This document shows positions 2,361 to 52,878 of a stretch of 64,000 nt of DNA, one piece after another. The stretch lies in IMG/VR virus record IMGVR_UViG_3300047510_001006, one strand, 5' to 3'. Origin of the DNA: an uncultured virus (IMG/VR IMGVR_UViG_3300047510_001006) (taxonomy: Duplodnaviria; Heunggongvirae; Uroviricota; Caudoviricetes). A program made the translations under genes and the position numbers. The notes beneath the pieces were generated by a model. That model had not been told where the DNA came from. It did no database searches and saw only the letters and a program-made list of their open reading frames with translations. Position 1 is the stretch's first letter; the number at the start of each line of letters is the position of its first letter.

Positions 2361-2561
2361 TCATCGGTCGAGTGACTTTCTCCAATTCTGCAGCGACCAA
2401 ACATAGTGCTGCTGATAGATTGTTTCAATGTCCGTCGGTTTTTTGTCCAACAAATAATTTAGTTGGGCGGTCTCACTTGTAATGACACGAGACAATGAAA
2501 TCTTCAAGTCCTTGCCCCTAAGGTGTCTTACTGATTTGATATAATTTTCTTGTTTACGCAT
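2361..2561 (-). CDS. Hypothetical protein
   Basis: 66-aa ORF in block. Confidence 0.5.
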   Translation of the reverse strand: MRKQENYIKSVRHLRGKDLKISLSRVITSETAQLNYLLDKKPTDIETIYQQHYVWSLQNWRKSLDR

Positions 2562-2940
2562 AATCGTTTTCTCTTAATATCATTTCTTGTTGAAAGTGAT
2601 AACCCCAAGCGGTATCAGCAAACGCCTCGTCTAATTCTACATAGTGCCAAAAGATATCATACAATGATTCCGATGTCATTTCAGATAGAGTTACTAAGTC
2701 GGGCGTAGAATAAGTTACACCTTCTTCATAGGCTCGTCTCCATAACATAGTATCTCTCCACTCACGCACACCCAAAGCACAAAGCATAAACCTAACAGGT
2801 TTCTTTGCGATGGTGTCAATGTCTAGATTGGGATTCTCCATCCAATCAGTTAGGTACTTGTCCTCGATGATTCCACTAGCGACAGCATCATCATACACGG
2901 CTCGGTCATAAAGCCATAATGCATCTTCAATCTTTGTCAT
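2554..2940 (-). CDS. Hypothetical protein
   Basis: 128-aa ORF overlapping neighbours. Confidence 0.65.
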   Translation of the reverse strand: MTKIEDALWLYDRAVYDDAVASGIIEDKYLTDWMENPNLDIDTIAKKPVRFMLCALGVREWRDTMLWRRAYEEGVTYSTPDLVTLSEMTSESLYDIFWHYVELDEAFADTAWGYHFQQEMILRENDYA

Positions 2941-3206
2941 AACATTAGTTTTAGTTTGTCGTTAAGCGACATGAGAATTTCTTTTTTTGTTTTTAATGGT
3001 GTTAGTGTAACACTGTGGTCTTCATGGGATTGATATCCACGCAAGTATATACTGCCGTGATCATCCCACATTGAAAGTTCGGGAATAGCTGAACACAAAA
3101 TCTGAACACCATCAACAGTAATGTCAATGTTTTTGTGTTCTTGATAGACCACACGATACAGAAAGCCTTGGTCTTTTTTTACGATTAGAATGTTAAATGG
3201 ATACAT
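2937..3206 (-). CDS. Hypothetical protein, probable paralog of 3234..3524
   Basis: Shared RVV.Q / PEL / (L,V)RG.Q / N.KLK motifs. Confidence 0.65.
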   Translation of the reverse strand: MYPFNILIVKKDQGFLYRVVYQEHKNIDITVDGVQILCSAIPELSMWDDHGSIYLRGYQSHEDHSVTLTPLKTKKEILMSLNDKLKLML

Positions 3207-3606: not shown

Positions 3607-4413
3607 TTAAAATAATGTTTCAGTATATTTCTTCATTGCTACACTATGTCCCTTGCACATAGCACACTGCCCTGCTTCAAGGTCATCACCATACCCTGTC
3701 ATCAACTCTATACCACAGTCACCACAATAGCCATGATCTATGCCGAATGATTTATTATAGGCAGCATCATCCATCCTATCATAGTAATCATTCCAATCCT
3801 TAGATGAGTAATCGGTAGTGGTTGACTTGGTGGTTGTGTTGGTGGTAGTTTTGAGTTGGTGTCCGTAGTAGCGTAGTGTTGGGTCAAGGTAAGACTTGTT
3901 ACTGAACCATGACTCACCATCCCAAACACCTGCTTTCTCATTGACAATAACAACATCGTTGTCATTAGACATAAAGATAAGTTTGTTGTATGAGCCAATG
4001 AACTCAGAGATAAGAGTAAGGACACTCTCAGACTTGGTAAAGTTCTTGGGCATATCTTTGAGGAACTCATTGAAGTGCCAAGTGTCAGAGAATTCTGAGA
4101 CCCCATACGAGAACTCTTGGATGATACCATTGTGTACAAACCCTACGGTCTCGTCGACAACGAATGGGTGGATGTTACGCTCGTCAACCACACCGTGAGT
4201 ACGAATACGGAAGTGCAGTACTACCTTGTCAGTAATCTTACGGACGGCTTGGTATTGTTTGAAGAATGCTTTGAATGATTTGAGTTGCTTGTAAACTTGC
4301 AACTGTCCATCTTGTACCCACAACATACCTGCGCCATCATCGTTTGATTCCCAGCAGTTCTGTAATGTTTTCTTAGTGAGTAAATCTTTGTTGTTGTAAA
4401 TTGCGATACACAT
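3607..4413 (-). CDS. Class II (Ntn) glutamine amidotransferase
   Basis: N-terminal MC, N.DG.G, HFR.RTHG, HPF, HNG and SDT motifs. Confidence 0.85.
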   Translation of the reverse strand: MCIAIYNNKDLLTKKTLQNCWESNDDGAGMLWVQDGQLQVYKQLKSFKAFFKQYQAVRKITDKVVLHFRIRTHGVVDERNIHPFVVDETVGFVHNGIIQEFSYGVSEFSDTWHFNEFLKDMPKNFTKSESVLTLISEFIGSYNKLIFMSNDNDVVIVNEKAGVWDGESWFSNKSYLDPTLRYYGHQLKTTTNTTTKSTTTDYSSKDWNDYYDRMDDAAYNKSFGIDHGYCGDCGIELMTGYGDDLEAGQCAMCKGHSVAMKKYTETLF

Positions 4414-11489: not shown

Positions 11490-11737
11490 AATGCGTATGT
11501 TAAATGAATCTTTTTGCTTTTTTCATCAGTGAACCTCGTGGTTATTGGGTCTTTTTTATTTTCTTCTACGAGTTTAGTAGCATACGCAAGGGCCTTTTCT
11601 TTTTGTCCCGCAGCCAATAAGTGAATTACTAAATCACAGGCTTTAAATGCATCTCTTTCTTTGGAAAACTGATACACGAGTTTTCTCATGTATGCATCAA
11701 CCATGTCTTTGATTTGCAGGTCTGTTTTGTTTATCAT
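11465..11737 (-). CDS. Hypothetical protein
   Basis: 90-aa ORF; TATCTTTG 4 nt upstream of ATG. Confidence 0.6.
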   Translation of the reverse strand: MINKTDLQIKDMVDAYMRKLVYQFSKERDAFKACDLVIHLLAAGQKEKALAYATKLVEENKKDPITTRFTDEKSKKIHLTYALCLEQNKD

Positions 11738-11741
11738 ATGG

Positions 11742-11809
11742 CAAAGATATTACATTTTGTTGTTTTAGTGGAAAATATTTTATACTTGTCACTATTTTTT
11801 GTAAATTTG
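11742..11809. promoter_or_regulatory. Back-to-back divergent promoters at the strand switch
   Basis: TATCTTTG (minus, 11742-11749) and TAAATTTG (plus, 11802-11809). Confidence 0.6.
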
Positions 11810-11815
11810 TGACAC

Positions 11816-12064
11816 ATGAAGCGCAAATACATCTATATTCGTTGGGATACACCGTTTCAAAAAAGAAAGGAAATGGAAACAATGCAAGATTTAGGTCTGA
11901 GCCTCAAGTTTAAAGATTATGATTTCCTGGCTGATCGCATTGAACTATGTCCCACCTATATCAAAAGAATGTTTATTACTTGCGACTTAAAGTTTCCTGA
12001 ATATCTTCCAGTGTTTAAAAAAGCAGTTAAAGAACAATTACTACGAGATGTCTATTTCATATAA
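11816..12064 (+). CDS. Hypothetical protein
   Basis: 82-aa ORF downstream of promoter. Confidence 0.55.
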   Translation: MKRKYIYIRWDTPFQKRKEMETMQDLGLSLKFKDYDFLADRIELCPTYIKRMFITCDLKFPEYLPVFKKAVKEQLLRDVYFI

Positions 12065-12479
12065 GGACCAAAAGGACATATTTGAAAAAAGACTTCGTGA
12101 ACTTTACAAAAAGGGCATGCCGCGGGCAATTGAATCCCAAAAAGTAGTAGAGGCCAAGAAATCATTGTTCTTTAATTCGACTGATATCTACATGAAGAAC
12201 AAAATTGAAATCTTTGTTAAGAACGTAGAATATCTAAAAGTAAAACACGATATGTCTGATTACAAACTTGGCAATTTCATTTGGATGCAGTCAGGCTTTA
12301 GTAATTATAAAACTACAGCCATTGGATTTTTGGTAAACAAATCTCGCATGTCGATTGAGAAATTATTGTTTCATGCCAAGGTTGTTGGGTTTAGTTTTGA
12401 CATTGACCCGCTTGATTTGATTACAGTTGACTTAGAATTCAACGAATCTAACGGAATTGTAAAAAAGTTTTGGAAATAA
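12048..12479 (+). CDS. Hypothetical protein, possibly with C-terminal XRE-like HTH
   Basis: N...LK..H.MS...L and F.IDP.DL pattern; weak. Confidence 0.5.
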   Translation: MSISYKDQKDIFEKRLRELYKKGMPRAIESQKVVEAKKSLFFNSTDIYMKNKIEIFVKNVEYLKVKHDMSDYKLGNFIWMQSGFSNYKTTAIGFLVNKSRMSIEKLLFHAKVVGFSFDIDPLDLITVDLEFNESNGIVKKFWK

Positions 12480-12490
12480 AAAAATTATAG

Positions 12491-12498
12491 TATATTTG
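12491..12498 (+). promoter_or_regulatory. -7 promoter element TATATTTG preceding a non-coding element
   Basis: Matches TAnnTTTG consensus. Confidence 0.6.
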
Positions 12499-12501
12499 CC
12501 C

Positions 12502-12810
12502 ATACTTGTGGTCGGAGGTACAGATGTACGTGACAGCAGCGCAAGTATTTATTGCTTCTACTGTGGGAACCTATCAAAGAAGCGACACCGGCACAAAGGA
12601 CTGAGGTGTATGATAGGCGGGGGGTATAGCCCTTGAAAGTTGAGTCCAAGCGTTAACCACCTATATGTTGGCACGTTCTCATGATAGACGAAGAAGTCAT
12701 CATTTTGAGATGTGAGAACTGAGACAAACTTGTTTTTGTTTCAGGAACTCACTCACGTCTCAATCAACCAAAGAAATCATGATATCTGATACTACGAATA
12801 CGTCAGAGTA
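12502..12810 (+). ncRNA. Candidate structured ncRNA (~310 nt) upstream of portal
   Basis: Multiple stems with G-U pairs valid only on + strand; 7-bp pseudoknot; no ORF. Confidence 0.65.
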
Positions 12811-12883
12811 TAAGTAATTATGGTATAATTGTCAAAAACTTGTATTCTTACAACTTTAGGCTTATATTTGTAATGTAGGCGAT

Positions 12884-15094
12884 ATGATATATTCTTTAAG
12901 AGAACAACCCAATCAATTCATTCCTGAAAATAAAAAAGACGCAATTTGGTATGCTGACTGCGTTAGATACGTAGCGTCTAAGTACAATACTCAAATGAAT
13001 AATTTGGGGTATCGCAACGAAACTTCCTACGATAAACCTGTAGATGAGATGCTGAGAATGTTCTCATACTACTTGGGTAAACAAGAGAATAGGGATTACT
13101 ACTACACTACACAAGATCAAAGCAACTGTGACCTTCCAACTGTTTGGATTAATGGTCAAAAGTTGACTTCAATGATTGACTTTATGTTGGGCAATGCAAT
13201 CAAGATGATTGAGAACATTGAACCATCTGTTCGTGCTACAGCAAAAGCAGTCGTTAATAGAAAAACACAAAAGCTTGAACTTGCTCTATTAAAATTAGAG
13301 TTAAGCGGTATCTTTAACGAGTTGGAGAAGAATGGTATCTTCTTTACTCCTACTGGCTCAAAGGAATTTGAGACCCCCGAAGAAACAATTAAGTACATGC
13401 ACTTTGACTACAAAGAACGAGGAGAAGAAATTGCTTACCGTTTGGCTAGTGACATTTTGCATCGTAACCGATTTATTGATAAATACAAACAGGCATTCTT
13501 CTACACCTTGTTGGGCGGAGTTGTTGGTATTGAAAATAAGGTAGTTAACAAAAAACAAGTAAAAGAAATTATTCTTCCCTACAACTTGATTTGGGATAAT
13601 TCGTTTGATGATGACCTAAACACAAAGGCTCGATTTACTGGTAAAGTAGATTGGTTGACCCCTGGTGAAATTCTTTCTAATCCCTACATGATTCAACAGT
13701 TGTCTACCGAAGAGATTGACGAAATCAAAACTATCAATACCCAAAATATTGATAAGTTGTTGGGAGAAGATAATATCACAACAAATAAACTTAAGTGGTA
13801 TTATAACACCAATGGAGTTCCATCTTTAGCAGCCGTAACTACTTACTGGATAGGCTATAAGGAACTGCGCTACGAGAAAACCAAAGACAAGTTTGGAAAT
13901 ACACACTACGCTAAAATGCGTGGCAAACAACCTTCAAGTTACTGGACTAAAACAGTTTACAAAGGCACATTGATTGCCAATAAGTACTTAGTTGAGTACG
14001 GAGAGCAACCAAACATCGTTAGAAAGTCTGACGACATGAATGAGGTTGACCTACCTATTTCAATCTTCATTCCAAACATGGTAATGGGAGAGTCTCGTTC
14101 TATCGCATCGCGCCTACACAAACACCAAGATAGAATTGACTTCTTGACCAACGAAATTACCAAGATGATTACTCGCTCAAAGGGTAAGGTATTTGTTTTG
14201 AACAAACACAAGTTGGGAACTGCAACTGCACAAGACGTGTTGAATGATTTCGAAAGAATGGGCATTCACATTACAGACGGAGCAGCGACAGGCGAAGATT
14301 ACAACACGGCTGACAACAACAGAATCGTTGAGGTTGTAGATATGACTCTTGATCCTAACATCAATCAGTTGTTGAACTTGAAGAACGAGGAGGAAAGAAT
14401 AATGGAAGAGATTGTTAACGTACCAAAGGTAGCAATGGGACAACAGGCTGGTTACTTGGGCGCTAAGACTCAAGCTGGTACTATTGCTCAATCTAACTTG
14501 GGTACTGCTTACTTATACCAAGGCTTTATTCACTTCATTGAAAGAGACTTGCAGTATGCGTTAAATCAATATAAGATTTCTCTGTTGGCTAATAAGGATG
14601 AGGATATTCCAGTTATCGGAGACCGCGGCCTTGAATATTTGAAATTGACAGAAGACTTCAAGTTTGAAGATTTTGCTATTTTCATTAAGGTTCGTGACTT
14701 CATTGATGAGGCTGCTAAAGAAAGGTTGATGATGATTGCACAGGCTGCAATGCAGAACCAACTGATTGATATGATGGACTTCTTGAAAATTGAAACTGCC
14801 AAAACATACACTGAATTGATGAATCAAATCGAGTATGCCATGAACAAAAAGCAGCGTAAAGCAGAAGAACAACAACAAATGCAAATGATGCAACAGCAGG
14901 CAATGATGGAACAACAAATGGCTATGCAACAACAGCAAGCGCAAATGAAAGAAGAAGGACAGAACTACAGAGCCGGAGTTAAGGCTGCCGTAGATATGGA
15001 TAAAACAGGAGGAAGTTCTGAAGCGGCTGCTGCCACAGGTGAGCAAGTTGCTGCCGAGGCTCCTGCTGAAGCTGCTCCTGCCCCACAACAATAA
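12884..15094 (+). CDS. Portal protein (crAss-like/P22-like)
   Basis: 736 aa; first gene of head module; long Q/M-rich C-terminal helix; promoter at 12863-12870. Confidence 0.8.
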   Translation: MIYSLREQPNQFIPENKKDAIWYADCVRYVASKYNTQMNNLGYRNETSYDKPVDEMLRMFSYYLGKQENRDYYYTTQDQSNCDLPTVWINGQKLTSMIDFMLGNAIKMIENIEPSVRATAKAVVNRKTQKLELALLKLELSGIFNELEKNGIFFTPTGSKEFETPEETIKYMHFDYKERGEEIAYRLASDILHRNRFIDKYKQAFFYTLLGGVVGIENKVVNKKQVKEIILPYNLIWDNSFDDDLNTKARFTGKVDWLTPGEILSNPYMIQQLSTEEIDEIKTINTQNIDKLLGEDNITTNKLKWYYNTNGVPSLAAVTTYWIGYKELRYEKTKDKFGNTHYAKMRGKQPSSYWTKTVYKGTLIANKYLVEYGEQPNIVRKSDDMNEVDLPISIFIPNMVMGESRSIASRLHKHQDRIDFLTNEITKMITRSKGKVFVLNKHKLGTATAQDVLNDFERMGIHITDGAATGEDYNTADNNRIVEVVDMTLDPNINQLLNLKNEEERIMEEIVNVPKVAMGQQAGYLGAKTQAGTIAQSNLGTAYLYQGFIHFIERDLQYALNQYKISLLANKDEDIPVIGDRGLEYLKLTEDFKFEDFAIFIKVRDFIDEAAKERLMMIAQAAMQNQLIDMMDFLKIETAKTYTELMNQIEYAMNKKQRKAEEQQQMQMMQQQAMMEQQMAMQQQQAQMKEEGQNYRAGVKAAVDMDKTGGSSEAAAATGEQVAAEAPAEAAPAPQQ

Positions 15095-16075: not shown

Positions 16076-17422
16076 ATGGCAAGTCCAACTACTACCCTTG
16101 ATATTTCAAAGAGTTTGTTACTCAAGGGACTTTCATTGCCTAACAAAATGGCAATGGTGTATGCTCAAGATTATGGGTATAACGTTTTGACTCAGTTGAC
16201 CTCTAAATTAGGTCCTTCTATTTCTACTAACCAACCAAAAGTAGAAATCAGCGCACTGGGTAATCTTTCTGTATTTTCAACCGTTACTGCAGTTGGTGCT
16301 GGTACTGGAACTGGAGAAATCTTAGTTACAGTTAACAATGCTGAAAACTTCCGTCCTGGTGACATCATCGCTGATGCTAACTTGGCTCAAGGTATCGTAA
16401 TCGAAAAAACTACTACTCCTAACCAATTGCGCGTTAAGAGTGTAACTACTACTTTGAGTTCTTCTTTGCACTTCTTGGTAGGTCACGTTGCTAAAGTATT
16501 CTTCGATGCTTCTGCTAACCGTTTGAGCTATGGTAAACCAACTTTGAACGCTGTTCCTAGCACTGACTTTACTTACACTTCTGTAAGTCGTGAAAGTTCT
16601 ACACAGGCTCGTCGTGACCGTACTGCTTCTTTCGTTAAGTGGCAGGGTGACTTCTGGTATCGTTCTTATGATGATATTACTTTGCGTCGTTTCGCAAAAA
16701 CTTTGGAGTACAAATATGCTTTCTCTGAGCGTGGTATTTTCTACGGTCCTCAAGGTGAAACTTATGGTACTGCTGGTTTGCGTTGGTCTATCATCAACAA
16801 CGGAGGTACCTATTTGCCTTTGACTTCTGAATTGACTCAGTCTGTATTCAATGATTTCTTGGAAACATTGGTACGTAAAACTGCTGACAACGGTCGTAAA
16901 ATGGTTGCTATGATGGGTACTGCTGCTATGGCTCGTTTGCAAACTATCTTGGGTGATTACATCAAATACGCTGGTACTGCAAACACCTTCGGTGGTGTAT
17001 CTGTTGACGGTTTGAATGTTATGACTTATGCTTACGCTGGTATCTCTATTGATTTCGTTCGTTGGGCATTGTTGGATGACGAGATGTTCCGCACTGATTT
17101 GAGTTCTGTTACTGGTAAACCAAAGCAGTCTCACTCAATCTACTTCATCGACATGACTCCATTGCCTGCTGCTGATGGAAGCGGTTCTTTGAGTCCTTTG
17201 CAGAAGTATCACTTTAACAACGATGAGATGATTGCTAACTACGTTCCTGGTATGATCGGTTTGGAGGATTCTACTCCTTCTTCTATCAAGGCTACTGTAG
17301 CTGGTTCTCAGATCGTTTCTTTGGGTACTAATGACGTGGATGGAGTTGATTTCCACGTATTGTCTGATTGTGGTTTGTACTGCGCTGCTGACCGCATGGG
17401 ATTGATTGAATTGACCCTCTAA
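16076..17422 (+). CDS. Major capsid protein
   Basis: 448 aa; strongly biased highly expressed codon usage; position after scaffold. Confidence 0.8.
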   Translation: MASPTTTLDISKSLLLKGLSLPNKMAMVYAQDYGYNVLTQLTSKLGPSISTNQPKVEISALGNLSVFSTVTAVGAGTGTGEILVTVNNAENFRPGDIIADANLAQGIVIEKTTTPNQLRVKSVTTTLSSSLHFLVGHVAKVFFDASANRLSYGKPTLNAVPSTDFTYTSVSRESSTQARRDRTASFVKWQGDFWYRSYDDITLRRFAKTLEYKYAFSERGIFYGPQGETYGTAGLRWSIINNGGTYLPLTSELTQSVFNDFLETLVRKTADNGRKMVAMMGTAAMARLQTILGDYIKYAGTANTFGGVSVDGLNVMTYAYAGISIDFVRWALLDDEMFRTDLSSVTGKPKQSHSIYFIDMTPLPAADGSGSLSPLQKYHFNNDEMIANYVPGMIGLEDSTPSSIKATVAGSQIVSLGTNDVDGVDFHVLSDCGLYCAADRMGLIELTL

Positions 17423-28140: not shown

Positions 28141-31100
28141 ATGGCAGAACAATTGCTCACAGGTCAACCTACCCCTCCAACTGGTCCACTTCCACTTACT
28201 TATCAGAATCTTTTTACTGAATCCACTAAGGTATCTCAGCGTAAAGATGTTCCATTACCTAATGGTAAATATGCAGCAAATGCAAAAGAGTTAGAGACGT
28301 TTTTACAGACTCCCGAAAACCAAGATGCATTCTATAAAATGTATAGCAAACCTGCTATGACATTTGGTGCTCGTGATTTAGAGTCATTCAAAACAAAATT
28401 AGGTGGAGGCCTCACGTCAGGAGAGATTGCAATGCAAAAAGCAAAACCATCTCTTCCAACAGTAAAGCCACAAACACAAGTTCAACAGATGGAATATCAG
28501 GATCTAAACCAACCTGCCATTGAACAATTCAATTCTCTAAAAGCAAACAAAATAAACAAAACAGCTTCTGGGAAAGACCTAAACACTTATGTCGAAATGC
28601 AGGATTACTTTTCAAATCCTGAAAATGTAAGTGAGTGGGGGAAAGCCCATAATGCTACAATTAAATACAGAAAGCTTGACTTAAATCAAATTGCCAACAA
28701 CGCAAAGCCAGTACAATCACTCAAGACAGTTACCGATGTTCAAATGGATGCTGCTCAGCAAGTTCAAAGAGACGACTTAGACCAAGTTGACCCTGAGAAA
28801 TTATCAGAACTTGTTTACAACGCTGAAGAACTTGGCTTGGTTGGTGAGTCCATCGAGTTGGAAAAACCAATTCAATATACTGAAATTGTAGATGGTCAAG
28901 TAGTTACAAAACAAATAGACAAACTAACCTACGAAGACTACACCCAACTTCTAAAAAAGAAGTATGGAAAAATAGACGAAACTACAGAGTTTTTCCAACC
29001 CAGTGTTGCCGGTGAACCAACTGTATTTGAAGTCAATGAGTTCGAGCAAGCAAAAGGAAAAGTAAAAGAAAACTATTTAGATATCGTTGCAACAAAGCAA
29101 CAAGACGAAAACAGAACCAAGATTAAAAATTACGATGCAGACGTTGAGACAAAAATGCGTCAACTCTTGTCATCAGACGATCAGAAGCTGGCTCAGATTA
29201 CTGACCAAATAGAAAGCCTTACAGACCAAATGCTTATGGATAAGTATTCGGGTAAAGGTGTAGCACCTGACTTTCAAGCAAAATTAAACAACTTAGAACA
29301 ACAGGCTGCACAAACAAGAAAAGACATGGGGCTGGCCTCAGAACAAATGTTTGATTCTGTAACTGGTCAAATGGTAGATACAACTCCAGAAGAGAAGCAA
29401 GCCATTCAAGTTGGTGCACAAAAGGCAACAGAAAAATATTCATCAAAATCTCCCAAAGACCAACTCAAAGCAGAAAGAAACTTGCTTTGGGAAAAAATAC
29501 AAGTAGTAGACCAACAAGCAAATTCGGTTAAGAACGAATGGGAAAACCAAAACATTCCAGGCTCTACTGCAATCGGTATGGCTCAAGAGGCATTGGGAAT
29601 TGAAGGAGGCATGACAGGAAGGAGTGCACAACTCTACAACTCCATGCTGAACCTTCAAAAAAAGAAAGCAGAACTCTATGGTCAAATGCAAACCTTAAAC
29701 AAACTGCTTTATACAAACGAAGATGTATTCAAAAGAGAAAAAGAATACGGAATCAAAGCAGCTGCTGAGTCAGTTGTAGAACAGGTGTATGGATTCAGTT
29801 TGTTCAGCGACCAAAACACGATTAGAACTCGTGTTCAAGAAGTAGAAGAAGCAAAGAAGTTTTTTGAAGAAAGAGGAATTCAACTTTCCAACAAACAGTT
29901 ACTTGGCGCAGAAACAGGAATAGGAGAAGCAGTCGGTGCGGGCATTGGTCCAACTTTAAATGGAATAGTCGATATCGGAATTAGTTCTTATGGACTTGGT
30001 GTATTGACCAAAGGATTAACGGGTTCTAAGTACTGGCAAGTAGCCAAAGAATTTATGTCAAACAAATATGGAGCAGCAGGACGATTTGCGACAAGCATGG
30101 CTGAGGGATCACTTCCATATTTAATTCAAGGTACGGCATATGAAGTAGCTGGTCAAAGTTTTGGAACAGGGGTTGCAGAAACAGCAGCAGAAAAATTATT
30201 TGATAGGTACGCAGCACAAGGACTTGAAAAGTTTGGTGGCAAGTATGGAAAACTAACTTTCATCTTGGGTCGTTGGTTAAGCGGTGCTACGGGTGAATTC
30301 ACCGCTGAAGTTGTTGGTAACATTGTTCCTTTGTTGGCAGAGAACGGATTCGACGTAAATAAAGCATACGAAGAAGCGTTTGGTAAAACATCTGATGAGA
30401 GAACCAAAAACTTGGCTATTCTTGGCATGAGTGTTACATTGCTGGCCTCTCCAGCTAACTTGAGATTCGTATTCAAGACCAAACAAAAGATTCAAGAGTA
30501 TATTGCAAACAACGGTTCTAACCCTGTGTTAGAAGAAACGCTGCGTGTAATTGATGATACAATTGAAAGAATGCCAACTGGCGAAGCAGCAACAAGATTG
30601 GACGAAAGAATCTACGGAGACAACCCCGTAGAACCATTGGTGTTTGTTGAGGCTCCTTCCACTATCATCAACGAAGATGCAATTGAGCCTCCGATTCAAG
30701 GTCCAGCAGAAAGACCACAAGAGACAGTTGAAGTAGAGAAGCGTTCGGCCAACAATGGAGAAGAGTTCTTTGTATTGGAGAATGACGGAAAAGTAAATAA
30801 GAATGTAGTTTATCGAGTAAACGCAACAAACGGTCAACTTGAAGTAAAAGGATACGATGCCATGCAAGAAGGATGGGTTCCTGCAAGCAAGACCATTACG
30901 GATGCCGTAGACCGCAAATCAAAGGAAAATGGTATTATCTCTTCAGATAAGGCTACTCGTGTCGCTAAACAGCGTTTAAACATCGATCCTGATGCCGACA
31001 GAGTAATTACTCCTGAGGGAAAAGTACTTTATCAAACTCCAGGACAAACCGCTGCTCAGTTTGGAAGAAACCGTCAGCGAAATACAAATACTGTTAGAGC

Positions 31101-34100
31101 AACTGCAGATAACACATTTGCTTTCTTGAATGGTGTTAAAGAGAAAATTATCAGCACCGTTTTCCCAAATGCAGAAACAAAAGTAGACGATCAACAATCA
31201 GCAAGTTATAACACATATCGTGATGCTGTTCGCACCAAAATGAAACTAAACGCAGGTTCTTTCTTCTCAAGAGGCAAGGCTGTGTTGATGGAAAGTGGTA
31301 TGAACAAGATACCAAAGGTTGCTGATTTCTTGGCTGCATTGGTTGAGGATTTCAGTAAGACAGGAAAAAGTATTGAGATTACGGTTGATAACATAGCACA
31401 AGCAACAACTAAAACTGCACTGAAGATTGAGGATGTTGTAAATAACATTATTGCAACTGAGTTCTTTCAGGATAAGTTTGGTTCAATGGCTGAGGCCTCA
31501 GACTATGCTAAAAACCTATTGACTGATTTGATGATTAACGACAAGTCAGTAGCACAAGAAATCTTTGGTCAAAACAAAGAAGCCTACAACCAATTCATCA
31601 AATTCAGAGAAGGCTTCAACAAATACGTTGCGAAGAACTACACTGGTAGTATGAACTTCAAAACAGACCACAAATTCTACAACAACCAAATGCCAGACAT
31701 GGCAATCAGGGCTCGTGAAGAAGAATTCCAAATGGAAGAGAAGCAGCGAGTAGAAGAGCAAGCAAAGAGAGAAGATGTAGCAAATGTATTGAACTTGGCA
31801 GGAATCGAAACATCAACTCAAAACGTAGAAGGTGTAAGATACAAACAAGGCGACTTGAGCGCAGAGCAATACCTTGAAACTCTAGGAGAAGATACCAACG
31901 GACTGACCGCAGACGAAATAACAGCAAAGGCTGATGTTGCTTCTGAGGGAGTAAACCTCGATACCTTCAACGAAGCCGTAGCAAATAGAACAACCAACGA
32001 ACAGACTCGCAAAAAGCGTGAGACTCGTTTGCGTAAGGAACTCAAAACAAAGTTTGGATTCAATAATCCATTGGCTAAACTAATCGCTAAAGGCGCACTT
32101 GACATGTCAATGAGAAGCAAGAGAGCAGTTACTGCTACGATGATGAACAAAGTCATTGAAACTGCTGCTACTCGTGCTGGTGTTACTGCGGATGAATTCT
32201 TGGATAACTTCTTGAAGTTCCAAAAGTCTACCGAACAAGAGTTCAGTGATTTTGTGAAGAATCAACCAGGAGGAAAAGAACTCTATCAGAGAATCGGAGA
32301 ATTGGGGGTTCGGTATAAACAAGATGTTGTTCAATTCTTAGATGACGCTAAAAGATTAGAGAAAGAAGGAAAGACACCTGACGAAATCTTAATGGCAACA
32401 GGATGGACCAGAGGCATGGATGGAAATTGGAAATATTCAATAATACCTCCATCTTCTGTTTTAAATCTAAACATGCTTTTCGATATAGCAAATAAAGATG
32501 TTGTATCGTATCCAATGAGCATGGTTCTAAAATATCCAGAACTTTATAGAGCTTATCCAAAATTAGCAGATATGGAAGTGATATTCACAAATAGTCCCAA
32601 TGAGGCGAATTGGGGAAGCTATTCTGATGAAATGATCACAATAAATACTGCACGAGGTGGTGTTAATACTTTGAATTTGCAAATGATATTACAGCACGAA
32701 ATACAACATGCCATTCAACACATAGAAGGATGGCAACCTGGAGGAAATCCTGAAGAAATACGGGTAGAAAATACAATAGATGTATTGCAATCGGCTGCTG
32801 AAGTATTGATAGAAAAAGGAACACCAATAAGTGATTTGGCAATAAAAGAATCAAATAGATTAATTCAAGAATTTGGATATCAGTTAAGGGGGGCTCAACA
32901 GGATGATTTTAGAAAATTGCACGCTATACTTCAACAAAATTTATGGGATGCTGTTCATCCTGTATTTGACGATAATTTGGTAAATGAGTTTACTCAAAAG
33001 TTTCCAATAAATTTATCAAATGAAATAATTTTATTGTTGTCAAATGTAACAGATTATAATCTATACACTAACATTTACGGAGAAATAGAAGCAGAAAATG
33101 CAGCACAAAGAGATTTAAAAACGGTTTACAATCTATTAAAAAATAAAGATGTATTAGAAACATACGTAAAGCCTGGACATCAAGAAGATGTAAAATATTT
33201 ACTCGAGGATATAGATAAGCTGAATTCTGAATATGGTAATTTTATGACTACTTCAACAAAAGCACTAAACGAAATAGCAAAAAATCCAGTACTAGGACAG
33301 TTTAATACAGACCTTCTAAAAAACGCATTCGGAAAAACAGAAATACAAAAAGACGGAAAAATTATAATTGAACCAGATGACATATCACAAAATTCAATTG
33401 AACTTATAAGATTATACACAGAAATAAAAAATACACAAGACCTCACAGACAAATCAAAATCTATTCTTCCAACGGAGCAACTGGAAACAATTTTAAATGT
33501 AATCAAACAAAAATCTAACTATGCTTTGAATAATGCTTATTTGAAAAATGAAATTTTAAATAATTTAAATTTATCAATTGGAATTTTAGACGGAGATATG
33601 ACTGCGGGGTATAGTCCTCTTTTTTGGCAAAGTTCTGGAACGTATAACCCCAAACAAGTAGTCAATACTTTAGCAACAAAGAAAAAATTCAAACCGTCCG
33701 AAAAATCACAGAAGCAATACGATACCGAGAAAAAGCAACTAGTTGAGGCAAGCGATGCGGTTCAGAATTTCGAACCTAAAGCTTTATTCCAAGAAAACAG
33801 AGGTGCAGCATTCATCACGCAGGATGCTACAGATTTGATTGTGGCTTTGACTGACCCTAACTTGTCAACTCCTTTGCACGAGATTGCACACATCTACGAG
33901 AAGTACATGACCGATGCAGAAAAGAAAGTAGTTCTTGATGCAACAGGCGAAACATCTTGGTCAACCAATACTTCTGAATACTTTGCTCGTGGCTTTGAAA
34001 GATACCTTTACAGCGGAAACGCACCAAGTGCTAAGATGATGCCGTTGTTTGATAAGTTGCGTAACTGGTTGATGGACATCTATACACAACTTACAGGCAG

Positions 34101-37100
34101 TGAGATTGATGTTACCTTAAACCAACCAATGCGTGACTTGTATTCTGCAATGTTGGGAGAAGCAAAAACACCAGAGACACAAGTAACTCCAACAGCAGGT
34201 CCACAAACAGCAGACGCTGCTTTGGCTGACTTTATTTCAGGTAAGCGAAATCAAGGTATTTCTGACGATCAGATCTATGTAGGGTTGTTACAATCAGGAT
34301 TCAAGGCTGCTGACTTAGAGGATTTCTTTAACTTAGAAACAAGGAAAACTGTAGCAAGTCAGATTGAAGAAAACGGCCCAATGAAAGATGAGGCAAGAAT
34401 CGCTGCCGATGAAGCTGCTGGTATGTACGTAAGAAGAACAGCAGAACAGTTGGAGATGGAAATGGACGGATTGACAATTGAAGAATCTCAAGCCTTGATT
34501 GAAAACTTTAGCAATGCGGCAAATCTTGATGCTGCCATTGCAAATCAGATACAAAATATCCTTGAAAAGAAAGCAAGAGGCGAAGATGTTCAAAAAGACT
34601 TCGAGACACTGATTGCAACAGGAACAAACTTAGGTCGTGCGTTGCAGGCGTTCACCCGATTGAAAAATCAGTCTGGGGCCCTCAGAGCAAGAAACCTAAT
34701 AAACAAACTAAAGCAAGACGGCAAGAAGATTCCCGATGCGATAAAGAACAAACTACTCGCACTCGGAGATGCTTACGATGAAGCCAAAGCAAAAATGAAC
34801 AACGCTAAGACGGCTGCCCAAAACAATCCTAACGGACAAAGTCCAGTAGCACGAAAAACAAATATTCAATACTTCCAACAACAGTTGCAGAACGTACAGA
34901 ATATCGGACAGCAGTTCACAACCGTTGCAGCGCCTTACACTTCAGAGGCTAGCATCAGCGGTACGTTTGGAACTTTAATTAGAGGTAACTTGTTGACACC
35001 AACATCAACCATCATTAACATTACTTCAAACGCAATAAAGGCTGTATTTAACATACCGATTAACTTGATTGCTTCTGGAACCTCAGAACTAAGTTCTTTC
35101 TTCGGAGGAGCCAAAGGAACAATGAGAGGCAAGGACTACTACAAGTACGGATGGAAGTATGGATTTATGACAGGAATCAGAAAAGGAACAGAGATTATAA
35201 AGAAAGGAAACATACCTGAAACAAGTCAAGGTTTGCAAATCGAACCTGGGTTTAATGGCTTCCGTTCTATGTCTGAGTTCTTTGGTGGTTTAGTAGCCAA
35301 GTATGTTCAAGGTAAAACAGATGCAGACATTGCTGCTGAGTATGGATATAACTTAAACCAAGCAGGAAAGATTCCAGGAAAAGAAAAAGTAGTTAAGATG
35401 CTAGAAGGAACATTCGGTGTACCTGCTGAAACATTCTTCCGTTTATTGGGTTCTGTCGATGCTGTATTTAGAAACATGGCTTACTATTCTGCACTTTCAG
35501 AACAAGCCAAACTTTCAGGTCTAAAAGATTCAAAGGATATTGAAAACTTCATTATTCTTAACTCCGACTACTCAAACACAAAAGCAGACCAAGAAGCATT
35601 AAGATACGTTTATTCAAACAACTCAAAACCCTATCAGTTTATTTCTAAAATCTACGGTACAGGGCAAGGAACAGGAGGTAAGATTTGGAAACTCGGAGCA
35701 ACTGGTGTTATTCCATACGCTAAGATTCCAACTAACTTGGCTATTGAATTTGCTGAAATTATGATTCCCGACTGGGCAATTCTCAAAGCTGGCTACCAAG
35801 CAAAGAAAATATACGACTTAAATAAACAAATCAGAAACACAAGAAACCCACAAGCAAAATTAAAGCTGGAGGCTCAGAAGCAAGACATTGCAAGAAAAAG
35901 AGATGAACTAGTTGGTAGAGCCGTCGTGGGATATGCTTTGACTTACGCTGGTCGTTGGATTGCCGAAAGCGGAGCATTGAGCGCAGGTGCGCAAGGAGAA
36001 GACAAAAAACGCAAGGATTATATCTACAGATTTGAAAGACCCTATAGTGTAAACTTGTCGCTTTTCAAACGCTATATGGATGGAGATAAAAATGACCTGT
36101 GGCAAGCAAACGATGCCATTGTTGACTATCGTCCATTGGGTGTATTTGGCGGTATTCTTTATACTTCTCAGAGCGAAACAAGAAGCACAGAAAAAGAAAA
36201 AAGTAAGGAAGTAACAAACCAAAGCGTATTTAGCACACTTTCAGATATGGCATTTAACAGCAACGTTGCAGAAACTGCTCGTTATCTAATTGACCAATCT
36301 TTTGTAAAAGGTCTGAACCAAGCACTCGCTGTGGTAGATCCTCGTCAAGAAGGTTCATTTGAAAGGTTTGTGAGTGGTCTTATGGGTACGTTGAGCGCAG
36401 CAGTTCTTCCTAACTCATTGGCTATCTACGATAAGGCGAACAGAAACTACATTCCTGAGTACGATAGTCCTTATACTGGAGCCGACAAAATCATTTATGA
36501 CTTTATGGCTAAAGTTAAGGAACGCTGGCCATTTGATGACCCAAACAACATTGTTGCTAAGGTTGATGCATTTGGTCGCCCTATTCCACAAACTCCAGTT
36601 GGCAGAAATGCTTGGTTCTTCAATGCTTTTGATGTGACTAAATTCTCAAGAGGTTTGTACGATGATAAAAATCAGAGCTGGGAACAACTTGTATATGAGG
36701 CAGTTAAGAAAGGAGATGTAATGACTGCATTTCCTTCAAATCCTTCGCCTGTTCTTAAATCAAGAGTAGGAGGAGAAAGTTATGTTTTGAGCCCAGAGGA
36801 TTATCAAAAGTATGCTATTGCTGTGGGAGAAGCAAGAAGAAAGATTGTCAATCAGTTTATCGAGAACGCAGAGCTGAGTCAATTCACAAATCTTAACTCA
36901 GACCTGAACAAAAAAACAGAAGATAACGAAAAGCCTTATGGTTACGTTGTGTTGGGTAAGATTTTGACAAGTTTGTATTCTGCTGCCGACGCAACACTTA
37001 TCAACACAGAAAGAGGTTTGATTTACGAAGCAAGAAAGAAAATGGCAACCGAAAGACCCGAAGAGTTCAAGGCATTGTTGGAAAAAGAAAAGAACAACAT

Positions 37101-37311
37101 CTATAGTCAGGCTTTGGATTTGTTGTACGATGACCCCGAAATGTCTAAGTACCTTCCCAAAACTACAGCTCAGGACATTTTCTTCTCAAAGAAAGCAAAG
37201 TATTCAGAAGATAGAACGATTAACGAAGTAGGTCCAGAAAGCATAGGACCAACTGAAAACACTGGAGTATTTGAGAAGGACCCGTATGACGAATTCTTTA
37301 ATCAGAAATAA
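28141..37311 (+). CDS. Giant polyvalent ejection/cargo protein with LPD23-like and two zincin (HExxH) regions
   Basis: 3056 aa; TGW..G.DG.W.Y, HEIQHAIQ.IEG...GG and GE.EA motifs; second PLHEIAH...SEYFARGFE. Confidence 0.7.
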   Translation: MAEQLLTGQPTPPTGPLPLTYQNLFTESTKVSQRKDVPLPNGKYAANAKELETFLQTPENQDAFYKMYSKPAMTFGARDLESFKTKLGGGLTSGEIAMQKAKPSLPTVKPQTQVQQMEYQDLNQPAIEQFNSLKANKINKTASGKDLNTYVEMQDYFSNPENVSEWGKAHNATIKYRKLDLNQIANNAKPVQSLKTVTDVQMDAAQQVQRDDLDQVDPEKLSELVYNAEELGLVGESIELEKPIQYTEIVDGQVVTKQIDKLTYEDYTQLLKKKYGKIDETTEFFQPSVAGEPTVFEVNEFEQAKGKVKENYLDIVATKQQDENRTKIKNYDADVETKMRQLLSSDDQKLAQITDQIESLTDQMLMDKYSGKGVAPDFQAKLNNLEQQAAQTRKDMGLASEQMFDSVTGQMVDTTPEEKQAIQVGAQKATEKYSSKSPKDQLKAERNLLWEKIQVVDQQANSVKNEWENQNIPGSTAIGMAQEALGIEGGMTGRSAQLYNSMLNLQKKKAELYGQMQTLNKLLYTNEDVFKREKEYGIKAAAESVVEQVYGFSLFSDQNTIRTRVQEVEEAKKFFEERGIQLSNKQLLGAETGIGEAVGAGIGPTLNGIVDIGISSYGLGVLTKGLTGSKYWQVAKEFMSNKYGAAGRFATSMAEGSLPYLIQGTAYEVAGQSFGTGVAETAAEKLFDRYAAQGLEKFGGKYGKLTFILGRWLSGATGEFTAEVVGNIVPLLAENGFDVNKAYEEAFGKTSDERTKNLAILGMSVTLLASPANLRFVFKTKQKIQEYIANNGSNPVLEETLRVIDDTIERMPTGEAATRLDERIYGDNPVEPLVFVEAPSTIINEDAIEPPIQGPAERPQETVEVEKRSANNGEEFFVLENDGKVNKNVVYRVNATNGQLEVKGYDAMQEGWVPASKTITDAVDRKSKENGIISSDKATRVAKQRLNIDPDADRVITPEGKVLYQTPGQTAAQFGRNRQRNTNTVRATADNTFAFLNGVKEKIISTVFPNAETKVDDQQSASYNTYRDAVRTKMKLNAGSFFSRGKAVLMESGMNKIPKVADFLAALVEDFSKTGKSIEITVDNIAQATTKTALKIEDVVNNIIATEFFQDKFGSMAEASDYAKNLLTDLMINDKSVAQEIFGQNKEAYNQFIKFREGFNKYVAKNYTGSMNFKTDHKFYNNQMPDMAIRAREEEFQMEEKQRVEEQAKREDVANVLNLAGIETSTQNVEGVRYKQGDLSAEQYLETLGEDTNGLTADEITAKADVASEGVNLDTFNEAVANRTTNEQTRKKRETRLRKELKTKFGFNNPLAKLIAKGALDMSMRSKRAVTATMMNKVIETAATRAGVTADEFLDNFLKFQKSTEQEFSDFVKNQPGGKELYQRIGELGVRYKQDVVQFLDDAKRLEKEGKTPDEILMATGWTRGMDGNWKYSIIPPSSVLNLNMLFDIANKDVVSYPMSMVLKYPELYRAYPKLADMEVIFTNSPNEANWGSYSDEMITINTARGGVNTLNLQMILQHEIQHAIQHIEGWQPGGNPEEIRVENTIDVLQSAAEVLIEKGTPISDLAIKESNRLIQEFGYQLRGAQQDDFRKLHAILQQNLWDAVHPVFDDNLVNEFTQKFPINLSNEIILLLSNVTDYNLYTNIYGEIEAENAAQRDLKTVYNLLKNKDVLETYVKPGHQEDVKYLLEDIDKLNSEYGNFMTTSTKALNEIAKNPVLGQFNTDLLKNAFGKTEIQKDGKIIIEPDDISQNSIELIRLYTEIKNTQDLTDKSKSILPTEQLETILNVIKQKSNYALNNAYLKNEILNNLNLSIGILDGDMTAGYSPLFWQSSGTYNPKQVVNTLATKKKFKPSEKSQKQYDTEKKQLVEASDAVQNFEPKALFQENRGAAFITQDATDLIVALTDPNLSTPLHEIAHIYEKYMTDAEKKVVLDATGETSWSTNTSEYFARGFERYLYSGNAPSAKMMPLFDKLRNWLMDIYTQLTGSEIDVTLNQPMRDLYSAMLGEAKTPETQVTPTAGPQTADAALADFISGKRNQGISDDQIYVGLLQSGFKAADLEDFFNLETRKTVASQIEENGPMKDEARIAADEAAGMYVRRTAEQLEMEMDGLTIEESQALIENFSNAANLDAAIANQIQNILEKKARGEDVQKDFETLIATGTNLGRALQAFTRLKNQSGALRARNLINKLKQDGKKIPDAIKNKLLALGDAYDEAKAKMNNAKTAAQNNPNGQSPVARKTNIQYFQQQLQNVQNIGQQFTTVAAPYTSEASISGTFGTLIRGNLLTPTSTIINITSNAIKAVFNIPINLIASGTSELSSFFGGAKGTMRGKDYYKYGWKYGFMTGIRKGTEIIKKGNIPETSQGLQIEPGFNGFRSMSEFFGGLVAKYVQGKTDADIAAEYGYNLNQAGKIPGKEKVVKMLEGTFGVPAETFFRLLGSVDAVFRNMAYYSALSEQAKLSGLKDSKDIENFIILNSDYSNTKADQEALRYVYSNNSKPYQFISKIYGTGQGTGGKIWKLGATGVIPYAKIPTNLAIEFAEIMIPDWAILKAGYQAKKIYDLNKQIRNTRNPQAKLKLEAQKQDIARKRDELVGRAVVGYALTYAGRWIAESGALSAGAQGEDKKRKDYIYRFERPYSVNLSLFKRYMDGDKNDLWQANDAIVDYRPLGVFGGILYTSQSETRSTEKEKSKEVTNQSVFSTLSDMAFNSNVAETARYLIDQSFVKGLNQALAVVDPRQEGSFERFVSGLMGTLSAAVLPNSLAIYDKANRNYIPEYDSPYTGADKIIYDFMAKVKERWPFDDPNNIVAKVDAFGRPIPQTPVGRNAWFFNAFDVTKFSRGLYDDKNQSWEQLVYEAVKKGDVMTAFPSNPSPVLKSRVGGESYVLSPEDYQKYAIAVGEARRKIVNQFIENAELSQFTNLNSDLNKKTEDNEKPYGYVVLGKILTSLYSAADATLINTERGLIYEARKKMATERPEEFKALLEKEKNNIYSQALDLLYDDPEMSKYLPKTTAQDIFFSKKAKYSEDRTINEVGPESIGPTENTGVFEKDPYDEFFNQK

Positions 37312-42055: not shown

Positions 42056-45000
42056 ATGAGAAAATTCATAACAGACATACTTGTCAAGGCCAGCCTTGGC
42101 GTAGAGCAGAATGCCTATGTATTGGGTACAGTAGGTATTGGTACTATTAGTCCTGCCGCTAAACTTCATGTAGAAGGAACTATATATTCTCCTACATATA
42201 CTAGCGGAGGCATAACAATAAACTCAGGAGATTTTCTATTTTCTGCTGAAGGTGGTGGAGATGGATTTCAAATGGATTACTACAATGGTCAGATGTATTT
42301 AGGCAATAATGCTGGTACATCTTGGCACATGGTAATGCAAGACAATGGCAATATAGGTATCGGTACTACAAGTCCAACTGACAAACTTCAAGTTGTAGCA
42401 TCTACATATAATGGCATAACAATTACAACGCCAGATGTAGCAACATTTAAAATGAGGTCAACAAGCGGTACTACCAGTTGGGGATTTGCAACAACAAACT
42501 TAGCAGCAAATGATTTTGGTATTTATCAAAGTAATTCTGGTGGTGGTGATCCAATTAATGCAGGTACAGCAAGACTTTATTTTAATGGCAGTGGTAACGT
42601 AGGTATCGGTACTACTGCTCCAATTTCAAAACTTCAGGTTAATGGACAATTTAGACAGTTATATTCTCGTGCATTTATATCTAATCCATTAGATAGTGAT
42701 GGATATGCTGGTCATATAATTGTAAACAGTAATAATGCAAATGGAGACCTTGCTGGTATTGGCCTTTATACAAACTCTTCGTATAACGCAGCTGCGGGAT
42801 TGTTTGCATTACAAGAGAGTTCTACTGCTGCATCAATGGTGTTCTATGCTGGTAGTAATCTTGCCACCGAACGTATGCGTATCACCGCTGGTGGTAACGT
42901 AGGTATAGGGACTGCATCAACAGTTGTAAATTCATTATTAAATGTAGCTGGTGGAGTAAATACAACAACAGGAATTATAGGTTATGATACATCAGATGCA
43001 TTTACTTTTAATGGAAAAACACAACCACATTACGGATTTAACTTAAATCCAACCGGAAGTAGTCCTATAGGAATATCTGGTTATTTTGGTATTAATTTCG
43101 CTACAAACGGAACAGAAAGACTTAGAATAGATTATGTGGGCAACGTAGGTATCGGAACAGCTAGTCCAGCTTACAAGCTTGATGTTAGTGTAGCATCCCA
43201 GCATGTAGCTAGGTTTACAAGTACAACTGCAGATAATGGAGGTTTAATAATTAATAAATCAAATGCTTCCTATAATCCTAATATACTGTTACAAACCGGA
43301 GGTAATACTAAATGGTATATACTAAACGCTAGCAACGACAGCGATAAATTCCAATTATATGAGTCTACAGGAACAAACCCTAGGTTTACTTTAACACAAG
43401 CAGGTAACATAGGTGTTGGTACTACTAGTCCTGTTGGTAAGTTAAGTATACTTGTAGATGGAGCTAGTACTTGGTCTCAATATATTCAAACTCCATTAAC
43501 TGGTAATAAAAGGAATTCAATAGGTTTCCACGACTATACGGGGTCCAATATAGCAGCAATTTTAACCGATGTTAATGCTAACAATACAGCAGATTTTGGC
43601 ATTTCTGTTCCAAATGGATCTCCAAGACTTGTAATTACATCTAGTGGGAACGTAGGCATTGGAACTACTAGCCCATATGGTAGATTAGAGCTGAATGGAA
43701 GCGGTCAAACTTGGCCAACTGCCCCTGCTATTAGAATGTGGGATTCATTCAATTCTAAGGGGTGGCTTGTTGGGAGTGCAAATAATTATACTGCTGGTGA
43801 TTTTTATATAAGAACACTACCCTCTGTTAGTGGGGATCCTGGTGCTGGGCAACAGGAATTTACAATAAAACACGCAACTGGTAACGTAGGAATTGGTACT
43901 ACTAGTCCGGGAGCAAAGTTACACGTAAGTCAAGGGGCGTCTGGAAATTCTTTGCCATCAAATGCACAAGCGGTTTTTGAATATGATGCAAATGGTGGAA
44001 TAGCGGTTTCAACACCAACGGGGAATGCTGCGGGAGTTTATTTTCCATACTCTACAAGTCCATACTATGCAGGCATAGATAGATTTGAAACAAACTTAAG
44101 ATTTTTTAGTGGTGACTCCGAACGTATGCGTATTAATGCTTCGGGTAACGTAGGTATTGGTACTACTAGTCCATTAAGTAAGGTTCATATCGAAGATTCA
44201 TCACCTATTCTAACAATTAAAGGAGTAGGGAATGGAGAATTTGGACTTAAAATAACTGATGGCAGTGCTAATACTGGAGGTATCACATACAATTCTAATA
44301 CTGGGGAACAAAGAATAATTGGTGGTCAGTCTTATGTTTTTCAAACTATTTACTCTGGTGGTTCCGAAAGAATGCGTATTACTACTGGTGGTAACGTAGG
44401 TATAGGTACGACTAGTCCTGCAGATAAACTTCAAGTTCAAAATGGGAATTTAAGTTTATATTCTAATTCTTATGGTAATACTGGTCTTGTAAGGCATTTT
44501 GGAACAGATAGCTTAGAAAAGTATCAGCAAGGATTAACTACTGGAGGGGACTTCTACCAATATACATTTAGTGGGTTAAATCACATATTCTACACAAATA
44601 ATGGCTTCGAAAGAATGCGTATCACCTCTGGCGGTAACGTAGGTATTGGTACTACGAGTCCGGGGTCAAAATTGCACGTATATAGTGGAAGCTCTGGAGG
44701 TACCCCATACACCGAAGGCATAACAGCTGAAAGCAATAGCAGAGTGGCTCTCAACCTGCTTTCTGGAGCTGCCAATGATAGTTATGTATTCTTTGGCAAT
44801 TCATCAGCAGGAAATGCAGGATATATTGGATACGAAAACACAGCTAACAGGCTTGTATTAAGAAGTAGCGATTACGTTTCACTTCTAGATAGTACAGGTG
44901 AAGTAATTAGGATAGATGGCGGCAACGTAGGTATTGGTACAACTAGTCCTACTCTTGTAAATTTTGGGCGTGAATTAGTTATAAGTCAGATAACTGGAGG

Positions 45001-52605: not shown

Positions 52606-52878
52606 ATGGCAAAAAATAAAATCATAGCAAAGAATAAAAGACCAGCTTCAAACAAAGCCACAGGACGCGATTACAGCTACGATAAAGAGTATCAGAAGGG
52701 CAAGGTATCATATCGTCAAGAACTTAACGCAGAGGCCCGCAAAAAGGGTATTTATGGCAAAAGAGCAGCCAAGGGTGTTGACCTCTCTCACAAGAAAGAC
52801 GGAAAGATGGTATTAGAAAAGAAAAGTACCAATCGTGCTCGTCAGGGAAGTAATGGCAAGTCTACCAAGAAGTCCTAA
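52606..52878 (+). CDS. Small basic protein, degenerate HNH-like (RDY..., DLSH, STNR)
   Basis: 90-aa ORF convergent with terminase. Confidence 0.5.
   Translation: MAKNKIIAKNKRPASNKATGRDYSYDKEYQKGKVSYRQELNAEARKKGIYGKRAAKGVDLSHKKDGKMVLEKKSTNRARQGSNGKSTKKS

Follow-up and report, generated by a model that had tools for sequence, protein, structure and literature searches.

The window analysed here is the whole 64,000-nt stretch of DNA from an uncultured virus (IMG/VR IMGVR_UViG_3300047510_001006), and the element studied is the gene-free stretch that lies 5' of its portal gene (bp 12884-15094, + strand; phrog_6547, E 3e-52). As the original prediction of about 310 nt free of ORFs had stated, no ORF of 60 amino acids or more is present within bp 12480-12883; the mechanically called ORFs there are only 32-54 amino acids long, and the indels that distinguish relatives in the alignments of this interval have lengths that are not multiples of three. 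The 143-amino acid ORF directly upstream (bp 12048-12479, + strand) is conserved throughout the portal clade, with homologues of 141-143 amino acids in seven of seven clade members, and matches no Pfam or PHROG family; one of its homologues gives a faint helix-turn-helix hint (E 0.017). Searches of the neighbouring small ORFs against Pfam and the PHROGs gave no matches, and a scan of the whole window for tRNA and tmRNA genes found none. The phage also encodes a terminase large subunit (bp 52875-54689, - strand, 40 kb from the element), a primase/helicase (bp 61148-62857), a DNA polymerase and a ribonucleotide reductase. Elsewhere on the + strand are a 3056-amino acid ORF of unassigned function (bp 28141-37311), which matches phrog_9880 over residues 1277-2000, and a 1943-amino acid tail-fibre protein that contains many repeated fibre modules (bp 42056-47887).

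The portal relatives used for comparison are nine IMG/VR loci whose portal proteins are 65-96% identical to that of the window; six of the nine align with the window across the spacer, and compensatory changes are visible there. Nucleotide and protein searches of a phage record collection with the spacer and the portal returned no match. The sequence TATATTTG, a promoter-like element of the TAnnTTTG type, is present at both predicted places on the + strand: at bp 12491-12498 it ends 3 nt before the modelled start of the RNA described below, and at bp 12863-12870 it is the promoter-like element of the portal gene, where it is kept in nine of the ten sequences of alignment A1. We take the TAnnTTTG motif to be the -7 promoter element of the Bacteroidota. 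Such an element lies a few bases 5' of the first RNA helix (P1, below) in seven of seven relatives in which the RNA precedes the portal gene on the same strand. A terminator scan of bp 12300-13000 found none; by eye, an A+T-rich hairpin (bp 12836-12857, + strand) flanked by runs of A and of T could be a weak terminator before the portal promoter, and a clearer A+T-rich hairpin followed by a T run can be seen between the RNA and the portal promoter in L006-L009. It seems likely that the RNA is transcribed from its own TAnnTTTG promoter and that it stops short of, or is shielded from, the portal gene's separate promoter. Its 5' end is placed from the promoter position and the start of P1, and its expression and both of its ends are to be read as predictions of the same kind.

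Architecture of the predicted RNA

Comparative analysis shows a predicted self-contained RNA gene of about 284-290 nt with two domains at bp 12502-12785 (+ strand), whose conserved body is matched by covariance model R1 at bp 12499-12651 (119.7 bits) and by model R3 at bp 12676-12785 (114.8 bits). In the 5' domain, helices P1-P4 are tied together by three pseudoknots (PK1-PK3), and the 3' domain comprises a short hairpin (P6) and a long two-tier hairpin (P7). Model R1, with 144 positions and 25 nested pairs, derives from 14 sequences of Bacteroidota and phages. Covariation in the 5' domain was measured on 52 of the 73 R1 loci, with the structure mapped from the window and with the betaproteobacterial type, in which one hairpin is missing, left out. 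In these 52 sequences 86.9% of the cells are paired, compared with 56.3 +/- 0.8% in shuffles (none of 500 reaches the observed value), and the covariation score is 0.727, compared with 0.200 after shuffling and 0.12-0.16 when the partners are slid by 1-3 columns. All seven predicted helices of the 5' domain, the three pseudoknots included, are supported by covariation; because the pseudoknots were outside R1, the alignment was not fitted to them.

P1 (bp 12502-12510/12540-12548) has 92.1% of its cells paired and eight of its nine pairs changed on both sides, and in its loop are the family motifs GGUCGG and ACAGCAGC together with a clade-specific small hairpin (bp 12518-12521/12526-12529). P2 (bp 12554-12559/12578-12583; 92.3% paired, double changes in five of six pairs) has an invariant UGGGA in its loop; P3 (bp 12585-12589/12605-12609) is 97.0% paired with double changes in all five pairs, and P4 (bp 12618-12623/12630-12635), which is the hairpin absent from the betaproteobacterial type, is 74.6% paired with double changes in all six. 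Outside the model, PK1 joins the P2 loop to a downstream strand (bp 12570-12576/12611-12617; 72.2% paired, seven of seven pairs doubly changed), PK2 joins the P3 loop to the strand that follows P4 (bp 12598-12602/12643-12647; 85.2% paired, five of five), and PK3 joins the P1 loop to the P2 loop (bp 12536-12539/12561-12564; 100% paired, two of four). All of these elements are on the + strand. In the raw motif pattern both variable PK3 pairs are kept in 126 of 132 distinct short matches, and among those 126 they occur in four different Watson-Crick combinations. The four stem and pseudoknot pairings that had been predicted for the 5' half (P1, P2, P3 and PK1) are thus at their predicted positions and covary in the 52 relatives; PK2 and PK3 are additional to the one pseudoknot predicted.

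The model of the 3' domain was built from the window and L001 and rebuilt from its own eight matches. In eight related sequences, with the alignment fitted to the model, 21 of the 30 pairs are changed on both sides and the covariation score is 0.518, compared with 0.205 after shuffling and 0.05-0.12 with slid partners. P6 (bp 12681-12685 plus 12687-12689, paired with 12696-12703; + strand) is 85.5% paired in the eight sequences, with double changes in six of eight pairs. The two tiers of P7, both already predicted, are an outer stem of 12 bp (bp 12705-12716/12752-12763, + strand; 92.7% paired) and an inner stem of 10 bp (bp 12719-12728/12735-12744, + strand; 94.5% paired), again in eight sequences. 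RNAalifold run on a MAFFT alignment of the 3' domain returned only a 4-bp helix, and models R2 and R3 found no match in more distant lineages. For these, single-sequence folding and inspection by eye show one long hairpin in the segment that separates the two words discussed below, the folding giving z < -2 in 18 of 20 and a mean z of -4.2 relative to mononucleotide shuffles. One further predicted hairpin (bp 12785-12790/12802-12807, + strand) is present in the window sequence and is not conserved, being absent from the closest relative, L001, and from L002; it probably lies outside the functional RNA, and it is the only predicted stem that compensatory changes in related phages do not keep. 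The proposed alternative partners GTTCTCA (bp 12675-12681) and TGAGAAC (bp 12713-12719) are complementary in sequence, and the alignment columns there hardly vary.

The minimum-energy fold of bp 12499-12785 includes the nested stems and has a z of -2.11, with five of 200 shuffles folding as well, and the - strand of a wider stretch has a z of -2.45; therefore thermodynamics alone decides nothing. G-U pairs, from which the original prediction had argued for a + strand RNA, dominate several supported positions among the 52 relatives (U-G in 27 of 52 at one P1 pair, G-U in 49 of 52 at one PK3 pair); this fits the + strand only.

An identical lineage-specific single-stranded word of 8-15 nt flanks the long hairpin on both sides. 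The window's word is 10 nt long, and word search together with cross-lineage comparison places the first copy, V1 (AAGAAGTCAT), at bp 12691-12700 and the second, V2 (AAGAAATCAT), at bp 12771-12780 (both + strand). V1 usually follows GGCUCC and V2 follows YCACC, and the hairpin unit between them measures 57-90 nt. In 20 of 22 lineages an automatic search settled on the two homologous positions; the words vary widely between lineages and stay identical within a lineage. Matches of at least nine letters with at most one mismatch occur within 23 of 44 RNAs, compared with 124 of 1892 cross pairs, a control that still includes close relatives. The spacing of the copies, counted from their offsets, is divisible by three in 10 of 20 lineages, a figure that does not clearly point to a hidden reading frame. 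In one lineage (L146, bp 2017-2110, + strand) the word contains ATG, and a 27-codon frame noticed by eye runs from the first copy through the hairpin to a TGA in the second; this is probably a coincidence. No complement of the word was found inside the RNA, in its 3-kb flanks or in adjacent tRNA genes, nor, except in L115, in the 100 nt downstream. In L115 (bp 3770-3810, + strand) the second word pairs 15 nt downstream to form a hairpin of about 13 bp with T and A runs that resembles a bidirectional terminator. The window's word, AAGAARTCAT, occurs four more times in the window (bp 1651-1660, 12156-12165, 16851-16860 and 56873-56882), and the resulting six occurrences compare with 0.69 expected (none of 100 shuffles reaches six); since the flanks of the extra sites have no extended similarity, these are treated as chance or codon bias.

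Family membership and distribution

At curated thresholds no Rfam family matches anywhere in the 64-kb window. The best match at relaxed thresholds is to RF02932 (Betaproteobacteria-1) at bp 12501-12625, with the loop motifs aligned and a score of 22.3 bits relative to a gathering cut-off of 49.4; the Rfam search suggested with the original prediction thus yielded nothing at curated thresholds and RF02932 as the best sub-threshold match over the element. Among seven loci searched in this relaxed way, RF02932 was the top match, in the same register, in five (L008, L009, L006, L002 and L001, from 33.1 down to 22.4 bits, all below the cut-off), and L003 and L004 gave no match to it. The layout of RF02932 is found in the window RNA, with GGUCGG ... 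ACGGCAGC in the P1 loop followed by a P2 hairpin with CUGUGGGA, and both P1 and P2 covary.

A first gapped version of the motif pattern did not match the window. With the shared 5' motifs as a pattern, 91 stretches were found in bacterial contigs (one genome per species) and 74 in viral contigs; most of these have a match length of 44-53 and a P1 that is complementary. R1 matches all 73 chosen loci, with E values up to 1e-4; these lie in phages, in prophages and in islands with integrases, from several phyla, and the bacterial members come from the Bacteroidota, Alpha- and Betaproteobacteria, Acidobacteriota and others. Three of 20 bacterial loci, from Caballeronia, Achromobacter and Giesbergeria, reach RF02932 at curated thresholds, and the other 17, which include Flavobacteriaceae, Alphaproteobacteria and Terriglobia, fall below its threshold. 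The three that reach it are the true RF02932 members L066, L055 and L025, which score 93-105 bits with the RF02932 model; they are matched by R1 at 41.3, 33.8 and 31.8 bits (E 1e-8 to 3e-6), and R1 was built without any betaproteobacterial sequence. These matches, together with the sub-threshold matches in the same register, make the window RNA a distant member of a wider family; by homology it has diverged very far within that family, of which RF02932 is the betaproteobacterial branch. Only the first 120 positions of the family are catalogued so far, and in one bacterial class. Rfam types RF02932 as "Gene; sRNA". The name of the motif has no occurrence in the main text of the 2017 survey behind RF02932 (PMC5737381), and a search of the literature on Betaproteobacteria-1 or structured phage RNAs found no description of the RNA beyond Rfam; one recent preprint (10.64898/2026.09.22.753630) deals with other RNAs.

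In the window and in L001, L002, L006-L009, L011-L013 and L019 the RNA lies 5' of the portal gene and on the same strand, and the portal proteins of this group are as little as about 52% identical. L003, with a portal 74% identical, has it before the portal gene on the opposite strand (bp 2569-2909, - strand), where it is followed by the homologue of the 143-amino acid ORF; therefore the RNA and this neighbour have been rearranged relative to the portal gene. L004 (bp 2546-3000) and L005 (portal 84% identical) have a spacer of about 455 nt between the homologue of that ORF and the portal gene that is unrelated, has no model or Rfam match and folds with a z of only -0.94.

Away from portal genes the surroundings vary greatly. 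On viral contigs the RNA lies between genes for DnaB and the terminase large subunit (L115) or before the small and large terminase genes (L158); it precedes ParB-like genes in L125 and L163, follows ParB, helicase and primase genes in L173, L128 and L181, an endolysin gene in L112 and L131 and a cro-like regulator in L150. HNH and integrase genes are among the other neighbours of the family. Bacterial islands are ordered tRNA, P4-type integrase, small ORF, RNA, and in the Flavobacteriaceae the RNA lies between serine-recombinase genes; tRNA genes are near it in six of the 20 bacterial loci scanned. An all-against-all BLAST comparison of the neighbouring ORFs found no protein common across phyla. 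Each of five genomes or records tested has a single copy, and in the family around one Flavobacteriaceae carrier the RNA is present in 2 of 141 sampled genomes (under stricter filters), as expected for accessory cargo. By mechanical ORF calls the gene after the RNA is co-oriented with it in 21 of 29 loci and opposite in 8 of 29, and where it is co-oriented its start is often no more than about 100 nt from the second word. The family is thereby shown to be an accessory module of phages, prophages and integrase islands in several phyla that is not tied to portal genes.

Possible roles of the RNA

Of the explanations considered, the best overall, and in our judgement a reasonably probable one, is that this is a self-contained RNA gene with its own promoter, an accessory module of the RF02932 type that acts as a folded RNA. 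RNAs of this size that have three covarying pseudoknots and unvarying loop bases usually turn out to be ribozymes, sensors of ligands or the cores of RNA-protein machines. The RNA would act in its own right as a folded molecule: its invariant knotted core may bind some conserved component of the host or provide a fold for catalysis or scaffolding, and through the two identical lineage-specific words it could recognise, twice over, a partner that changes from element to element. How such an RNA works appears much less certain than what it is. A more specific version, with a constant 5' "engine" and the word as a programmable address, the partner being engaged twice or the hairpin being handled by a polymerase or nuclease as a repeatable cassette (by template jumping or by excision and circularisation), strikes us as quite improbable; if true, it would be a new RNA-based device common to phages and islands across phyla.

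The original prediction of a standalone noncoding RNA is supported as regards a folded + strand RNA with a conserved promoter element of its own; the frequent co-orientation and proximity of the next gene also suit a co-transcribed leader. Such a cis-acting leader, in which the nascent RNA would alter the polymerase or the downstream message, for example by put/nut-type processive antitermination of whatever operon follows, here the portal and structural genes, is unlikely in our view. In most phage loci the RNA heads a co-oriented block, the following gene sharing its strand in 21 of 29 loci; it lies at module boundaries, such as after the cro-like gene of L150 and before the terminase genes of L115 and L158; in L003, too, an operon on the RNA's strand begins with it, the homologue of the 143-amino acid ORF coming next; and the two lineage-specific word copies resemble nut-type sites, which are read by lineage-specific proteins. 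A leader for the portal operon is harder to reconcile with the portal gene's own promoter element, conserved in nine of ten sequences, with the hairpin and T run seen by eye between the RNA and this promoter in L006-L009, and with the opposite orientation of the next gene in 8 of 29 loci, all Flavobacteriaceae islands among them. The downstream genes are moreover mutually unrelated, and at about 290 nt with three pseudoknots the RNA is far larger than antiterminator RNAs are known to be. The absence of a complementary partner in cis, and the fact that the words are direct repeats, identical within and different between lineages, that flank a discrete hairpin unit of 57-90 nt, would also suit an RNA that is processed or used as a template. 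Here the words would be two equivalent sites, either for a cleavage that releases or circularises the hairpin or, as homology, for template jumping by a polymerase as in rolling-circle reverse transcription. The neighbourhoods examined contain no reverse transcriptase or ribozyme family, no known self-cleaving ribozyme was matched in Rfam, and the copy spacing, a multiple of three in half of the 20 lineages, gives no clear hidden frame; we consider processing or templating very doubtful.

The original prediction also raised, as speculation, a comparison with the phi29 pRNA. As such a packaging RNA, the present one would sit as a ring on the portal and assist the motor. The RNA is portal-adjacent across a clade with portals down to about 52% identical, and the conserved 4-bp loop-loop pairing of PK3 could in principle form between molecules. 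This analogy is unsupported given the many different neighbours, the inversion in L003, the absence from L004 and the ordinary terminase. Members of the family are found in integrase islands that have no packaging genes, and in phages beside replication, lysis or regulatory genes; at curated thresholds Rfam gives no match in the 64 kb of the window, and its matches up to E 10 in bp 11500-13500 do not include pRNA. To our knowledge phi29-type phages have no terminase large subunit and no primase/helicase, and the window phage has both. Membership in the phi29-type pRNA group was tried and rejected on two features: there is no match to that catalogued family, and the RNA is not confined to phi29-type packaging systems. 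A packaging role of this kind is thus exceedingly unlikely. An element that works as DNA, such as an origin, a packaging site or cruciforms, would suit the intergenic position between early and structural genes and the - strand that also beats its shuffles (z -2.45); it is scarcely credible in view of the covariation of the pseudoknots, the dominant G-U pairs, which are A-C mismatches on the other strand, and the fact that all model matches are on one strand relative to the promoter element.

With a self-contained folded RNA gene as the preferred reading, the window case extends the family to phages that use TAnnTTTG promoters and gives its full two-domain architecture, and the duplicated lineage-specific word is a concrete experimental handle. 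It also disposes of the tempting but mistaken idea that this is a second type of packaging RNA; no specific link to packaging was seen.

Comparison with known systems

The present RNA and the phi29 pRNA, as the latter is generally known, are both structured RNAs encoded by phages with a short covarying loop-loop pairing, and in the window clade the present RNA is portal-adjacent as well; the two differ in size and fold and show no match in sequence or structure. DRT2 uses short repeats for a template jump, and a structured RNA such as this one could use its repeats in the same way; unlike DRT2, none of the loci examined here has a reverse transcriptase nearby. The DRT2 defence noncoding RNA is reported to be reverse-transcribed into concatemeric cDNA (10.64898/2026.09.22.753630). 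Like the put sites of HK022 and the nut sites of λ, the present RNA in some phages heads an operon or follows a cro-like gene, and it has repeated lineage-specific words; the window RNA is much larger, is pseudoknotted and has its own promoter and a separate one downstream, and members of its family also lie convergent to their neighbours. GOLLD and ROOL are described in the 2017 survey as large prophage RNAs with complex folds and unknown roles that are often near tRNA genes (PMC5737381). The complex fold and the phage or prophage setting are shared by the present RNA, near which tRNA genes occur in 6 of 20 loci, whereas the window RNA and the scanned loci have no Rfam match to either. GOLLD and ROOL are reported to form RNA-only assemblies (10.1101/2024.12.08.627333).

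RF02932 shares with the window RNA the GGUCGG and ACGGCAGC of the P1 loop and the CUGUGGGA of P2, in the same order and register, and also the setting in mobile elements, where the true members examined adjoin helicase, primase and ParB genes. The window RNA differs in its extra hairpin P4, which is missing from the betaproteobacterial type, and in its hosts, the window type being found in phages with TAnnTTTG promoters and in Flavobacteriaceae. Finally, the RF02932 model has 120 positions, whereas the window RNA is about 290 nt long and includes a second domain.
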